Source: Gemmatimonadota bacterium
Lineage (GTDB): Bacteria > Gemmatimonadota > Gemmatimonadetes > Gemmatimonadales > GWC2-71-9
NCBI GenBank assembly: GCA_003220855.1
Contig: QHTP01000021.1
Coordinates: forward strand, 1-43,146
Direction of reading: 5' to 3'
Length of the DNA stretch: 43,146 nt
Both the position numbers and the translations under genes were made by a program. Position 1 is the first letter of the stretch. The number at the start of each line of letters is the position of its first letter. Positions 20,159 through 24,410 of this stretch are shown in pieces. Under the pieces are notes generated by a model. It had not been told where the DNA came from. It was given only the letters and a program-made list of their open reading frames with translations, and made no database searches.

Positions 20159-21229
20159 GTGAGCTTCGACCGGGTGACGCGCACCTGCGGCGCTGCGCTC
20201 ACTGCCCTGGTGGGCGTGTGCATCGCCACGGGTCTGTCGGCAAGCCAGACACCGGCCGACTCCGCGCCCAGCCGCGCCCGGGACCGCCTGTTCGAAGCGA
20301 GCGAGCCACTCGAGCTCACCCTGAAAGCCGACTTCGGGGCCATCAACAAGAATCGCGGCAACGATAAGCCGAACCACCCCGGTGTGCTCTCCTACACCAC
20401 GGCGGCGGGCGATTCCGTGGTGCTGGACGTGCAGCTGCACACCCGCGGCCACTTCCGGCTGGCCCGGTGCCAGTATCCACCGCTCAAGATCGTCTTTAAC
20501 CGCGAGCAGGCGGCGCACACCACCTTCGCTCACCAGGGGAGCCTCAAGCTCGCCGTGCAGTGTCGGGGCGGCCAAGGGTACGCGAACTACCTGCTGGAAG
20601 AGTCCCTCATCTACCGCGCCTACAACCTGCTCACCGATCGAAGCTTCCGGGTGCGCCTGGCACACGTCACGTATGTGGACGCGACCGGCAAGCACGCACC
20701 CGAGACGCGGCGCGCGTTTTTCATCGAGGACGACGACCGCATGGCGCGGCGCAACAATACGAAGGTGTTCGAGCAGAAGGGCGTCACCCAGGGCGAGCTC
20801 GACTTCGACCAGACGGGGCTGGCGATGGTGTTCCAGTACATGATCGGTAACACGGACTTCGCCGTGACGGCGCTGCACAACATCGTGCTCATTCGTGATT
20901 CCCTCGAGACGGTGTATCCGGTGCCGTACGATTTCGACTGGTCCGGCGTCATCTCGACGCCGTACGCCCAGCCCGATTCGCGGCTCGGGATCCGCGACGT
21001 GCGCCAGCGCCTGTTTCGCGGCGAGTGCCGCTCGCCGGAGGAGCTCGCCAGCCTGTTCGCTCGCTTCAACGCCCAGAAGGAGGCGATCTACGCGCTGTAC
21101 CGCGGGATGGCCGCCGAGGGACTCGAGCCGAAACGGATCGCCCAGGCGCTCGATTACTACGACGACTTCTTCAAGACCATCAACGACCCCGGTCGCACGC
21201 GTCGCGAGTTCACACTGGTGTGCCGGTGA
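20159..21229 (+). CDS. secreted CotH-like (atypical kinase-fold) protein, function unknown
   Basis: Signal-like CGAALTALVGVCIATGLSAS. The pattern VQLHTRGHFRLARCQYPPLKIVF...LKLAVQCRGGQGYANYLLEESLIYRAYNLL...VRLAHVTYVD...FFIEDDD and QYMIGNTDFAVTALHNIVLIRD...VYPVPYDFDWSGV resembles CotH family blocks. GTG start. This is recognition by eye only. Confidence 0.4.
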   Translation: MSFDRVTRTCGAALTALVGVCIATGLSASQTPADSAPSRARDRLFEASEPLELTLKADFGAINKNRGNDKPNHPGVLSYTTAAGDSVVLDVQLHTRGHFRLARCQYPPLKIVFNREQAAHTTFAHQGSLKLAVQCRGGQGYANYLLEESLIYRAYNLLTDRSFRVRLAHVTYVDATGKHAPETRRAFFIEDDDRMARRNNTKVFEQKGVTQGELDFDQTGLAMVFQYMIGNTDFAVTALHNIVLIRDSLETVYPVPYDFDWSGVISTPYAQPDSRLGIRDVRQRLFRGECRSPEELASLFARFNAQKEAIYALYRGMAAEGLEPKRIAQALDYYDDFFKTINDPGRTRREFTLVCR

Positions 21230-21233
21230 CGAC

Positions 21234-24200
21234 GTGGCCGCCGTGACCGAGCCGCGCTGGGACGTGCCGAGTGCCGCACGCCTGGCCGAGCTGGTCGTCG
21301 CGCCACTGCCGCTCGGCCTCACCCCCGGACCGTCGCGGCGCACGTTTCACCGGGACCTGTATTTCGACACGCCGGCCGGCGACCTGCGCCGCCGCGGCAT
21401 CACCTGCCGCATGCGCTTCGATCTGGACGATCGGCGCGCGCTCGCCCTCGACGTGGGCGCGGTCCGCTACGTTGCCCCGGTCGTCGAGCTCGAGCCGCGT
21501 GAGGCGTTCCGCGGGGACGCGGAGCCGGCGCGTCGGCTGCGGGCGCTGGTCGACCCGGAGCGGCTGGTGCTCGGCTGCGAGCTCGAGGTCGAGCGCGAGC
21601 TGCGCGACGCCCGCCTCCCGGTCGTGCCGCTGCCGCAGTTCGAGGTCGGGTACGACACGGTGACGGTGCGCGGGACCGATCCGCCGCCCGTGTTCTACGA
21701 GCTGGCGATCACCCACCGCCCCTGGTGCGTGATCCCGGCGGGGCGCTTCGCCCGCTCGCTCGAGCGCCGCTACGGCCTCGCGCGCTCCTCGCTCGACTGG
21801 GCGGAGCGGGCCCGAACGCTGCGCCTCGCGCTCGCTACGGCGGACGGCCCCACCCAACAAGCCCGCCAGATCGCCGTGCTCGCGGTCGCGCATGGGCGGC
21901 TGGCGCTGTGGCGGAGCGGCGCCGCGCTCGAGCTGCCGCTCGAGCCGGGCGGCGGCGAGGAGGCATGTCGCCGAGCCATGCGCCGCCTGTTCGGGAACAT
22001 CGAAGGTGAGACCCGTCTGATCGGCGTGGTCCGGGCGGCGGACCGGCGTCCCGCGGTCGAGGTGTGGCTGGTGCGGCGCCTGCGCCGCAACCTCACCGCG
22101 GCGCCGCCCGGCGGGCTGCAATGGTTCACGCCGGCGGACGTCGTCGCGCGAGTGGGCTCGCCCGTGTTACGGGATCCGACGACGCTCTCGGCCTTGGCGG
22201 TCGCGGCCCGCTCGGAGCTCGTGCCGGAATGGTCCGCGGCGCCACTCGCGCCGGCGCAGCCGACGGGCCTCGCCGGCGGTACGACCGACGAGTCCAGCCG
22301 GCTCACCTTGAGCGAGCTGCGCGTGCCGGTGCTGCCGTCCCGGGCCCTCGACGCCGCGCGGCAGACGCCCGACCACTTCGTCAACGCGCTGCTCTCCTCG
22401 CTCGAGTTCAACGTCCGGGTGCTCGAGCTGGCCGAAGATCCCCGCGTCCCGCTGCTCGCACGGCTGCGCTTCCTCGCGATCGTCAGCACGAACCTGGATC
22501 AGTTCTTCATGGTCGACGTCGGCTCGCTGCAGCACCAGGTGGCGGCCGGCGTCGTGGAGCGCTCTCCCGACGGCCTCACGCCGGCCGAGCAGCTCGACGC
22601 CATCGCGATCCGCCTGCATCCGCTCATCGCGCGGCAGTATCGCTGCTTTCACGACCTTGTGGGGGGGCCGCTCGCCGCGCAGGGCATCCGCATCCGCGAC
22701 TGGACGGCGCTCGACCCGGGGGAGCGCGCCGCGCTGGCGCGCCGCTTCACAGATGACGTGGCGCCGCTGCTCACGCCCAAGGCGCTCACCCGCGCCCCCG
22801 GACACGCCTTTCCCCACCTCGCCGACCGCCGCCTGAGCCTGGCGGTCATGCTGCGGGACGGGCCGGACGGCCCGCCTCACTTCGCGACGGTCGAGCTGCC
22901 GCCGTCTCTGCCCCGGTTCCTGGCCGTGGGCGGGGACGGTGGCGGGGTGGTCGCGCTCGAGACGGCGGTGCGCGCTCACCTGGGCACGCTGTTCCCCGGG
23001 CGCGAGATCCTGGAAGCACACGCCTTCCGCGTGACGCGCAGCGGGGACATTCAGCTGGACGAGCTCGGCGCGGCGAGCTTCGTGCAGGCGGTCGCCGAGG
23101 AGGTGCGGCGGCGACCGTGGGGTCCGGTGGTGCGTCTCGAGGTCGAGCGCGCGATGCCCCCGGCGCTGCGTGAGCTGCTGCAGCGCGAGCTGCGCTTCGA
23201 GGAAAGCGAGCTCGCGAGCGCGCTCGGACCGTCGGACGTCTACGCGGCGGACGGGCCGGTGCATCTCGGCGCCGTCACCGAGCTGGCCGGCGCGCACCCC
23301 CGCCCGGAGCTCGACTATCCCCCGCTCGCCCCCCGCGATCCATTTCCCGCCGGACGCAGCGTGTTCGACACGCTCGACTCGGGCGACGTCCTGGTGCACC
23401 ACCCGTTCGACGGGTTCGCCGCCAGCTTCGAGCGCTTCATCGCCGAGGCGGCGGACGATCCCGCCGTCGCCGCCATCAAGCTCACGCTGTATCGGCCCGG
23501 CGGGCCGTCGGCGCTGGGAGACGCGCTGCGGCACGCCGCCGCTCGCGGCAAGGACGTATCGGTGTTCGTCGAGCTAAAGGCGCGGTTCGACGAGGAACTG
23601 AACATCGGCTGGGCGCAGAGCCTCGAGGCGGCGGGCATCCACGTCATCACCGGCGTCGCCACGCTCAAGACCCACGCGAAGATCGCCCTCGTCATCCGGC
23701 GGACGGGCGGCCACACGCGGCGCTATGCCCACCTGGGGAGCGGCAACTACAACCCCGACACCGCCAGGCTGTACACCGATCTGGGGCTGTTCACCGCGGA
23801 TGAAGAGATCACGGCCGATCTGCACGCGCTCTTCAACGAGCTCACGGGCTCCGCGCGCGCCCCGCGGGCGGCGTTCCGGCGGCTGCTCGTCGCACCGACC
23901 AACATGCTCGACCGTTTCCTCGCCCTCATCGCGCGCGAGGCGGAGCACGCCCGCGCCGGGCGCGGCGGGCGCATCCGCGCCAAGCTCAACGGCCTCGCCG
24001 ACTGCAGCGTGATCGGTGCGCTGTACCGCGCGTCGCAGGCCGGCGTGGACGTGCGTCTCGTGGTGCGGGGGGTGTGTATGCTGCGCCCGGGCGTGCCGAG
24101 GCTGTCCGAGCGGATCAAGGTGGTGAGCGTGCTGGGTCGCTTCCTCGAGCACGCGCGCATCTATCACTTCGAAAACGGGGGAGCCCCGGAGTATTACATC

Positions 24201-24410
24201 GGCTCGGCCGATTGGCGGCCCCGCAATCTGCGCCGCCGCATCGAGGTGGTCACACCCGTGGACGACCTCGCGGCACGGGACCGGTTGGACGGGATGCTCG
24301 AGCGCGAGCTCGCCGACCCCGATGCCTGGAGCCTCGCATCCGATGGCTCGTACGCCCGGGGTGTTGGCCTCACACGTCCCTCGCGTACCGCATCTCATTC
24401 GTCGGCCTGA
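21234..24410 (+). CDS. ppk1: polyphosphate kinase 1 with ~370-aa N-terminal extension (CYTH/TTM-like + degenerate Nudix-like)
   Basis: The PPK1 core starts at about nt 22370: LEFNVRVLELAEDPRVPLLARLRFLAIVSTNLDQFFMVDV, RVTRSGD, LVHHPFDGF, LYRPGG, LKARFDEE, TLKTHAKIALV (catalytic His), HLGSGNYN, RFLEHARIY. N-terminal part: FHRDLYFDTPAGDLRRRGITCRMRF (CYTH-like). GTG 21234 lies 4 nt after the upstream stop; GTG 21243 is an alternative. Confidence 0.85.
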   Translation: MAAVTEPRWDVPSAARLAELVVAPLPLGLTPGPSRRTFHRDLYFDTPAGDLRRRGITCRMRFDLDDRRALALDVGAVRYVAPVVELEPREAFRGDAEPARRLRALVDPERLVLGCELEVERELRDARLPVVPLPQFEVGYDTVTVRGTDPPPVFYELAITHRPWCVIPAGRFARSLERRYGLARSSLDWAERARTLRLALATADGPTQQARQIAVLAVAHGRLALWRSGAALELPLEPGGGEEACRRAMRRLFGNIEGETRLIGVVRAADRRPAVEVWLVRRLRRNLTAAPPGGLQWFTPADVVARVGSPVLRDPTTLSALAVAARSELVPEWSAAPLAPAQPTGLAGGTTDESSRLTLSELRVPVLPSRALDAARQTPDHFVNALLSSLEFNVRVLELAEDPRVPLLARLRFLAIVSTNLDQFFMVDVGSLQHQVAAGVVERSPDGLTPAEQLDAIAIRLHPLIARQYRCFHDLVGGPLAAQGIRIRDWTALDPGERAALARRFTDDVAPLLTPKALTRAPGHAFPHLADRRLSLAVMLRDGPDGPPHFATVELPPSLPRFLAVGGDGGGVVALETAVRAHLGTLFPGREILEAHAFRVTRSGDIQLDELGAASFVQAVAEEVRRRPWGPVVRLEVERAMPPALRELLQRELRFEESELASALGPSDVYAADGPVHLGAVTELAGAHPRPELDYPPLAPRDPFPAGRSVFDTLDSGDVLVHHPFDGFAASFERFIAEAADDPAVAAIKLTLYRPGGPSALGDALRHAAARGKDVSVFVELKARFDEELNIGWAQSLEAAGIHVITGVATLKTHAKIALVIRRTGGHTRRYAHLGSGNYNPDTARLYTDLGLFTADEEITADLHALFNELTGSARAPRAAFRRLLVAPTNMLDRFLALIAREAEHARAGRGGRIRAKLNGLADCSVIGALYRASQAGVDVRLVVRGVCMLRPGVPRLSERIKVVSVLGRFLEHARIYHFENGGAPEYYIGSADWRPRNLRRRIEVVTPVDDLAARDRLDGMLERELADPDAWSLASDGSYARGVGLTRPSRTASHSSA

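Follow-up and report, generated by a model that had tools for sequence, protein, structure and literature searches.

Why would a member of the Gemmatimonadota encode a polyphosphate (polyP) kinase, PPK1, with a long N-terminal extension, and why should its gene begin only 4 nucleotides (nt) after that of an apparently exported kinase-fold protein? These questions are raised by contig QHTP01000021.1 of Gemmatimonadota bacterium GCA_003220855.1, which was analyzed as one stretch of 43,146 nt (the window; all positions count along it). The G+C content of the window is 65 to 75%, and its best protein matches are in metagenome-assembled genomes (MAGs) of Gemmatimonadales from soil and groundwater. 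We consider it reasonably probable that the two genes, called here open reading frame A (ORF A) and ORF B, specify a polyP module in which PPK1 carries noncatalytic CYTH and Nudix-like domains for binding or docking and is accompanied by an exported CotH-type phosphotransferase.

All features of the two ORFs are on the forward (+) strand. ORF A (20159..21229), defined from the ORF listing, its third-position GC, an AlphaFold2 (AF2) model, and Foldseek, encodes a CotH-like kinase-fold protein of 356 amino acids (aa) that is predicted to be exported; its stop codon is the TGA at 21227-21229. After a spacer of 4 nt (21230..21233), read directly from the sequence, the GTG at 21234 opens ORF B (21234..24410), a single uninterrupted frame of 1058 aa with high third-position GC, which encodes the CYTH, Nudix-like, and PPK1 fusion. 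Translation could equally well begin at an in-frame GTG at 21243; in an alignment of ORF B homologues, 4 to 8 residues precede a conserved R-W. An earlier annotation by a model that saw only the letters and their ORFs (the sequence-only reading) had given the same ends, lengths, and start codon, and every motif that it quoted from either protein is present.

PPK1 synthesis of polyP is a textbook bacterial pathway, and the C-terminal two-thirds of ORF B is an ordinary PPK1. The core, with its N, H, C1, and C2 domains, occupies 22353..24410, and a complete PPK1 spans residues 374 to 1043, which agrees with the earlier statement that ORF B is canonical PPK1 only from about residue 374. PF13089, PF02503, PF17941, and PF13090 matched in order, all above their cut-offs, with E values of 1e-30 to 8e-63. 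The full-length NCBIfam models NF003921 (773.2 bits versus a cut-off of 701) and TIGR03705 (688.3 versus 465.85) matched as well. Like the PPK1s of E. coli (1xdo/1xdp) and Porphyromonas gingivalis (2o8r), ORF B has the four domains, aligns over the full length, and keeps both histidine motifs: KTHAK (residues 812 to 816; 23667..23681) aligns with LKVHAK of 2o8r and holds the autophosphorylated histidine equivalent to E. coli His435, and LEHAR (residues 971 to 975; 24144..24158) aligns with LEHSR of 2o8r and holds the second HKD-type histidine, equivalent to His592. To inactivate E. coli PPK1, H435 and H592 have been mutated (10.1101/567040). The motif LEFNVRV lies near the start of the core, at residues 390 to 396. 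From these features ORF B is predicted to be a cytoplasmic, catalytically competent polyP kinase. It differs from the solved PPK1s, which have 683 to 705 residues and align from about residue 4 to 14, in having a 373-residue extension in which a CYTH and a Nudix-like domain are followed by a linker. The sequence-only reading knew of no characterized PPK1 with such an architecture, and we likewise found no description of a CYTH-PPK1 protein in the literature searched, where absence is no proof of absence.

What is the extension? An AF2 model of residues 1 to 375 was built from 24 homologues. Residues 1 to 205 (21234..21848) appear in it as a CYTH/triphosphate-tunnel (TTM) domain, for which pLDDT exceeds 90 over most of residues 10 to 200. 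When this domain was compared with the Protein Data Bank (PDB) by Foldseek, the top 17 matches were all CYTH/TTM structures (E values of 4e-8 to 1.5e-6), led by 2gfg, 7ns8, 6yp4, YgiF 5a60, and 3sy3 (4e-8 to 3e-7). On the model, then, residues 1 to 205 have the eight-stranded beta-barrel tunnel fold, as had been proposed for about residues 1 to 200. The Pfam CYTH model (PF01928) gave 17.3 bits, under its cut-off of 23.2, and only over residues 31 to 75; the extension has about 50 homologues, several of which have a precomputed PF01928 match together with the PPK domains. Identification of the tunnel as a VTC-type domain was rejected, as there was no PF09359 match and the top folds were classical CYTH proteins. 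A wider search with a CYTH profile brought in no cultured organism and just a few fragments. It also matched, at 27% identity, a stand-alone protein of 325 aa encoded on a 1.1-Mb contig (P0326), and unfused CYTH-like modules of the ORF B type may therefore exist.

The hallmark motif of CYTH proteins is ExExK (PMC8233210). At its position in the family alignment ORF B has RWDVP (residues 8 to 12; 21255..21269), the eroded motif noticed earlier, and ExExK is absent from all 11 of the divergent members that we aligned (down to 25% identity): the first glutamate never occurs and the lysine is replaced by P, R, L, V, or D. At the ExE position in strand beta8, YELAI (E156 and A158; 21696..21710) aligns with ELELEL of YgiF, and the second glutamate is gone; across the family this position reads E/Q-x-A/S/C/T/V, so that the first glutamate is kept as E or Q and the second is replaced. 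The first ExExK glutamate and the second ExE glutamate have been assigned to metal coordination and to the metal-2 site (PMC8233210). Other parts of the tunnel are retained. CRMRF (residues 58 to 62; 21405..21419), with an invariant R59 and an R61 kept in at least 90% of members, is the RxR triphosphate-binding strand and aligns with LRLRF of AtTTM3 and LRIR of YgiF. D11, the D41-x-Y43 motif, D141, and E156 are kept; R40, R54, R59, and R121 are invariant, and R52, R61, R101, and R124 are conserved in at least 90%. The domain thus resembles the CYTH/TTM enzymes (SaTTM 7ns8, YgiF 5a60, and AtTTM3 5a5y) in its beta-barrel tunnel, RxR, DxY, and first ExE glutamate, and differs from them in having R-W-D-V-P for ExExK, in the loss of the second ExE glutamate, and in falling below the Pfam gathering cut-off.

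Residues 206 to 335 (21849..22238) appear to form a Nudix-like domain that is catalytically degenerate by motif. Foldseek matched it to the Thermus ADP-ribose pyrophosphatase 1v8u (E value, 3.7e-4; TMt, 0.55; root mean square deviation, 4.0) and also to 3x0r and 3o52, with a pLDDT of 63 to 88 over residues 210 to 330. A 13-member profile searched against the PDB found the same Thermus enzyme as its best match, aligned over the whole domain, at a nonsignificant E value of 0.45; the Pfam NUDIX model (PF00293) matched none of the 13 Nudix-like segments. In the alignment to the Thermus enzyme, GGGEEACRRAMRRLFG (residues 239 to 254; 21948..21995) is a shortened remnant of the Nudix box. The consensus GX5EX7REUXEEXGU is broken by a 3-residue deletion before the box and by replacement of REx2EE with R-A-M-R-R-L, so that the Nudix-box glutamates are all replaced by Ala, Arg, or Leu; the sequence-only reading had correctly described a Nudix-like stretch without these acids. 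The linker that follows (residues 336 to 373; 22239..22352) varies in length in the alignment and was modeled with low confidence (pLDDT below 50 over residues 331 to 375).

Could the long ORF B be an artifact, in which a CYTH-Nudix gene was joined to PPK1 in assembly or annotation, or in which PPK1 starts near nt 22300 and the upstream 1.1 kb is untranslated, a possibility that the sequence-only reading had itself named? The predicted disorder of residues 331 to 375 and the fact that database homologues are often fragments would fit such an origin. Several results speak against it. ORF B is a single open frame with an even third-position GC of about 0.9. In the ORF A frame this value is 0.84 to 0.91, the signal moves from the ORF A frame to the ORF B frame at about 21150 to 21300, and it stays at 0.88 to 0.96 across the entire first third of ORF B; therefore, the extension of about 1.1 kb is coding. 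In a JGI metagenome relative that is 96% identical (loci L088 and L089; L numbers designate loci of related genomes) the spacing is the same 4 nt and a product of 1060 aa was called independently. Because fusions of 1019 to 1065 aa recur in many independent assemblies (at least 10), the fusion is not an artifact.

Codon differences, counted as synonymous only versus amino acid changing, gave the same answer. In the Nudix-like part, synonymous differences greatly outnumber replacements (11 to 0 against L088 and 35 to 7 against L081, with 95% aa identity to L081), and in the PPK1 core the counts are 23 to 9 and 117 to 50 (93% identity). The CYTH part is under weaker constraint, at 8 to 7 and 29 to 39 (81% identity). 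The N-terminal extension is thus under purifying selection, weaker on the CYTH part: the Nudix-like part is conserved at least as well as the PPK1 core, and the CYTH part evolves faster. Given the coding GC, the products of the relatives, and the codon comparison, we reject an artifactual fusion or an internal start near nt 22300 as scarcely credible.

Do the two extra domains still act as enzymes? ORF B might be bifunctional, with its CYTH domain, and possibly its Nudix-like domain, working as a short-chain polyphosphatase, pyrophosphatase, or cyclase that trims, primes, or recycles the polyP made by PPK1. The CYTH fold is intact and modeled with very high confidence; D11, E156, D41-x-Y43, RxR, and many arginines are retained; and the domains are under purifying selection. 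In addition, AtTTM1/2, which are CYTH proteins without ExExK and ExE, are reported to be pyrophosphatases (PMC8233210), and ORF B is like them in that its CYTH domain sits in a multidomain protein lacking the hallmark motifs. Against these points, the first ExExK glutamate and the second ExE glutamate are missing in all family members examined, the CYTH domain has no HF motif such as class IV cyclases have, and no Nudix-box glutamate remains. On balance we regard a catalytic role of these domains as unlikely, and infer that CYTH and Nudix catalysis has been lost and that the domains serve in binding or docking.

The second question concerns the partner. ORF A begins with a predicted signal peptide (residues 1 to 29; 20159..20245) that consists of a basic n-region, the hydrophobic stretch GAALTALVGVCIATGL, and then SAS-Q; pLDDT is low over residues 1 to 38. 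A basic and hydrophobic N-terminal segment that ends in an AxA/AQ-type site occurs in 48 of 49 diverse family members, which bears out the signal-like segment noted earlier, and export through a Sec signal peptide is the likely fate of the protein. Cys104 and Cys135 are invariant among the 49 sequences and Cys290 and Cys355 are present in at least 90%, a pattern that fits an exported, disulfide-bonded protein. ORF A was also considered as a lipoprotein; this was rejected, as LVGVC falls short of a lipobox and its cysteine is not conserved in distant members.

The AF2 model of ORF A (pTM, 0.77) was compared with the PDB by Foldseek. The CotH kinase of Bacillus cereus, 5jd9/5jda, came out on top (E values of 4.6e-8 and 6.5e-8), and these two structures were the only matches below an E value of 1e-3; they were followed by HipT, PI4KII-alpha, and ordinary protein kinases. 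The Pfam CotH model (PF08757) is matched weakly by 7 of the 49 relatives (best E value, 5e-5); a Pfam and NCBIfam scan of ORF A itself gave no match, PF08757 included. The CotH-like fold proposed in the sequence-only reading is therefore upheld by the structure comparison and by these relatives.

Conservation across the 49 sequences, which extend down to 34% identity, outlines a kinase active site. Invariant residues are R96, G97, R100, C104, C135, E148, Y152, E190, R198, D233, H240, N241, D260, G263, and R284; K130, D258, C290, and C355 are conserved in at least 90%. The TRGHFR block (residues 95 to 100; 20441..20458), with R96, G97, and R100, belongs to the N-lobe. K130 lies in the LKLAV strand (20543..20557; strand 128-133 of the model) and is a candidate beta3 lysine, and E148 lies in the next helix (139-156). 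FFIEDDD corresponds to residues 187 to 193. A catalytic-loop-like segment, GNTDFAVTALHN (residues 230 to 241; 20846..20881), contains D233, H240, and N241, and YDFDWSG (residues 257 to 263; 20927..20947), with D258 and D260, is a candidate DFG-like metal-binding segment. On the model, K130 would be the beta3 Lys, E148 the alphaC Glu, D233...H240-N241 the catalytic loop, and D258-F-D260 the DFG-like motif. CotH of B. subtilis requires the catalytic D228 and the metal-binding D251, 23 residues apart (PMC7821199); in ORF A, the candidate equivalents D233 and D258/D260 are separated by a comparable 25 to 27 residues. ORF A thus looks like a distant CotH-type kinase-fold protein with a full set of predicted catalytic residues, and it probably has phosphotransferase activity outside the cytoplasm.

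Bacillus CotH (5jd9/5jda; Nguyen et al. 2016, cited in PMC7821199) is the best structural match to ORF A, which has putative catalytic-loop and downstream metal-binding aspartates at similar spacing and an R-G block in the N-lobe. Unlike Bacillus CotH, ORF A carries a signal peptide as well as four conserved cysteines, comes from non-spore-forming hosts, and belongs to a separate large family that lacks a Pfam model. Among 8000 scored candidates, 4789 clusters reached an E value of 1e-3 or less, and clustering at 50% identity left 3236 representatives. The family occurs in at least 593 GTDB species of the Gemmatimonadota, Bacteroidota, Rhodothermota, and Acidobacteriota. Because one locus (L039) has tandem CotH-like genes (5985-7028 and 7016-8071) and MAG JARRLD01 has family members on three contigs (L024, L048, and L076), the family is multicopy in some genomes.

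Is the pairing of such a gene with PPK1 a peculiarity of this contig? We scanned 80 species loci that contain a relative of ORF A, covering 7 kb on either side. A membrane protein with a DUF4956 domain (PF16316) is adjacent in 30 of them. In 17 loci there is a type I phosphodiesterase/nucleotide pyrophosphatase (NPP; PF01663) of about 550 aa, mostly divergent and upstream of the DUF4956 and CotH-like genes (for example, L022:4095-5756(-), L025:4126-5793(-), and L058:5208-6848(-)). A calcineurin-like metallophosphoesterase is found in 10 loci, and in the Bacteroidota it takes the place of the PF01663 protein (Metallophos-DUF4956-CotH-like). These 27 phosphoesterases (17 NPP and 10 metallophosphoesterase matches) are of a secreted type. 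A further neighbor cluster, c5, was rejected as a protein family: it consists of Arg/Gly/Pro-rich shadow ORFs antisense to the PF01663 gene and has no Pfam match.

PPK1 lies within 7 kb in 14 of the 80 loci, an outcome of the neighborhood test that the sequence-only reading had suggested for CotH-like proteins and PPK1. By our own rough estimate, with one or two copies of ppk1 assumed per genome, about 1% or fewer of random 15-kb stretches would contain the gene, and on that estimate 14 of 80 is far above expectation. The CYTH extension is present on ten PPK1 genes. Five loci have the CYTH-Nudix-like-PPK1 arrangement (L013, L024, L047, L059, and L069), four have CYTH-PPK1 without the Nudix-like domain (L022, L051, L053, and L064), and the tenth, in L001, is represented by a CYTH fragment where the contig ends and is not among the 14. 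The fullest arrangement, in L022 and L051, is an NPP gene on the (-) strand, then DUF4956, CotH-like, and CYTH-PPK1 in that order. Adjacency of the CotH-like gene and PPK1 persists in tandem, convergent (L059), and divergent (L013 and L024) orientations. In addition, the ORF A and ORF B pair itself was found in L081 to L085, L088, and L089 and in 10 GTDB species loci. Every CYTH-bearing PPK1 stands beside a CotH-like gene, in a sample that is biased in this respect, the loci having been collected through the CotH-like gene.

One locus joins the components differently. In L003:4777-7512, from the MAG Gemmatimonadetes NC_groundwater_234, a multipass domain of the DUF4956 type is fused to the N terminus of PPK1, directly after the CotH-like gene; the fusion gene runs off the contig end. 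Its product would be a membrane-anchored PPK1 and would connect DUF4956 with polyP synthesis in the Rosetta-stone sense. In these loci the PPK1 N terminus bears either CYTH or DUF4956, never both, with a single example of DUF4956-PPK1, and an adaptor role for CYTH fits this alternation. In the Bacteroidota loci the ORF A family is found with DUF4956 and phosphoesterase partners, and the family also occurs in the Rhodothermota; no adjacent polymerase was seen in the loci of either phylum.

A known gene set offers a precedent. CotH, a VTC-like polyP polymerase (a TTM protein), and DUF4956 form a conserved accessory set beside Gram-positive pel operons, for example, SIR_1594/1593/1592 of S. intermedius; the pel-linked CotH homologue is secreted, and deletions had no clear phenotype (10.1101/768473; 10.1101/2024.04.20.589940). 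These reports document the neighborhood of CotH and VTC-like TTM genes that the sequence-only reading had mentioned. In the window, as in the pel-linked triad, the gene of a CotH-type protein (predicted to be secreted) adjoins a TTM-fold gene tied to polyP synthesis, and DUF4956 is adjacent in the 30 related loci. The differences are substantial: the polyP maker is PPK1 and not a VTC-type TTM (there is no PF09359 match), the TTM domain, a CYTH-type one that no longer has ExExK, is joined to PPK1 with a pseudo-Nudix domain added, the CotH-like protein has diverged beyond the reach of the Pfam CotH model, the window has neither a pel operon nor DUF4956, and the hosts belong to Gram-negative-type phyla. 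The locus is most aptly described as a remote variant of the pel-linked CotH/TTM/DUF4956 set.

A number of points weigh against a polyP module with an exported CotH-type partner. The reported AtTTM1/2 pyrophosphatases do so with respect to the loss of catalysis. A scan for promoters and terminators was uninformative; ORF A and ORF B very probably form one transcription unit. The TM-score of ORF A against CotH is only 0.43 to 0.44, with about 10% identity. Because sequence searches of the PDB with ORF A and with the 49-member family profile returned nothing meaningful, the link to CotH rests on the fold and on the weak Pfam matches of relatives; and because a residue-level alignment of ORF A and CotH could not be made, the kinase roles given above are tentative readings of the model. 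No DUF4956 gene was detected in the 43-kb window with a hidden Markov model built from 30 neighbors. Thirty-four of the 80 loci have none of the partners listed above. The CotH-like gene is kept without the PPK fusion in the syntenic loci L086 (6001-7107) and L087 (4024-5130) and also in L002 (7001-8089), where the CotH-like protein is 66% identical. Thus, ORF A is not strictly dependent on an adjacent PPK1, and, as such close relatives keep the CotH-like gene alone, the fusion gene appears to have been gained or lost recently within the Gemmatimonadales. The two-gene module proposed in the sequence-only reading stands insofar as the pair with its 4-nt spacing recurs; the set is wider elsewhere, with DUF4956 and phosphoesterases commoner than PPK1, and the pairing is not obligatory.

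Another explanation would make the adjacency circumstantial. ORF A, as a kinase or pseudokinase of the envelope, would join DUF4956 and phosphoesterases in scavenging phosphate or modifying the envelope, and the CYTH-Nudix-PPK1 fusion would simply be the polyP kinase of this lineage, with a regulatory N terminus that has nothing to do with ORF A. The syntenic relatives without a PPK gene, the 66 of 80 loci without PPK1 nearby, and the lack of DUF4956 in the window are all in its favor. Set against them are the frequency of PPK1 within 7 kb, the retention of adjacency in three orientations, the DUF4956-PPK1 fusion that adjoins a CotH-like gene, the company of a CotH-like gene for every CYTH-bearing PPK1 (with the sampling bias noted above), and the independent CotH/TTM/DUF4956 linkage in the Firmicutes. 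We therefore judge mere coincidence to be distinctly unlikely.

How might a polyP module of this kind work? The PPK1 part of ORF B would make polyP. Its CYTH and Nudix-like domains, with folds kept and canonical catalytic acids lost, most likely bind phosphoanhydrides (the ends of polyP chains, triphosphate, or a nucleotide signal) or serve in docking, and would regulate or position PPK1 and link it to DUF4956 and the exported partner. The CYTH domain would then stand in place of the VTC-like TTM polymerase of the Gram-positive triad, and ORF A would work as a phosphotransferase in the cell envelope; some functional hand-over between PPK1 and the exported ORF A may occur. For comparison, the eukaryotic VTC complex includes inactive TTM subunits.

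A bolder version of this mechanism can be imagined, in which polyP made by the CYTH-PPK1 is threaded through the dead TTM tunnel to DUF4956 and exported, and the CotH-like enzyme, working in a cell envelope that is free of ATP, takes polyP instead of ATP as its phosphoryl donor or its substrate. PolyP as a donor for ORF A is an attractive if speculative idea; we nevertheless think the whole scheme very unlikely. If it were true, bacteria would have a counterpart of the synthesis-and-translocation machine that VTC forms in eukaryotes, here feeding an extracytoplasmic kinase, and PPK1 would have displaced an ancestral TTM polymerase, with the TTM domain kept as an adaptor.

The remainder of the window consists of ordinary chromosomal genes; no other polyP genes were found in it, and the gene order around ORF A and ORF B is syntenic in relatives. 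Divergent from ORF A and about 90 nt away is an Ion_trans_2 (K+-channel-like) gene of 379 aa (18929-20068, (-) strand). This arrangement is kept in L081 to L085, L088, and L089. L086 and L087 also have the channel gene, separated from the CotH-like gene by PQQ and cytochrome genes. Following ORF B there is an ABC transporter. At 24459-24776 (-), a 105-aa arginine-rich ORF has repeated RR/ERR motifs and no Pfam match; ORFs of 80 to 104 aa occupy the equivalent place in L084, L086, and L088. Farther away, 5548-7170 (-) encodes a 540-aa homologue of eukaryotic lipase maturation factor, with LMF1 and LMF1_C each matched at an E value of about 1e-50. The 554-aa ORF at 16183-17847 (+) is a homologue of the SBP56 selenium-binding protein/methanethiol-oxidase family; it overlaps an XdhC gene, and its 5' end is probably overextended, with relatives called at 399 aa. 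Downstream of ABC-2 transporter genes, a Ser/Thr protein-kinase-domain gene (267 aa) adjoins an HTH_31 regulator (27464-28267 (-) and 28436-29344 (-)), in an order that is kept in L088.

The window locus, the DUF4956-PPK1 fusion, and the CYTH-PPK1 variants together tie PPK1 to the CotH/TTM/DUF4956 set, for the first time as far as we found. The association of a CotH-type exported enzyme with polyP synthesis would span the Firmicutes, from the literature, and the Gemmatimonadota, from this work, despite a swap of the polymerase. The analysis also delimits a large family of kinase-fold proteins that are predicted to be exported and for which Pfam has no model. For PPK1, the pseudo-TTM and pseudo-Nudix pair, maintained by purifying selection, may provide a handle on how the enzyme is regulated or positioned in the Gemmatimonadota, a phylum that includes polyP accumulators relevant to phosphorus removal. 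And for the ORF A family, a kinase that works outside the cytoplasm raises the question of what its phosphoryl donor would be.

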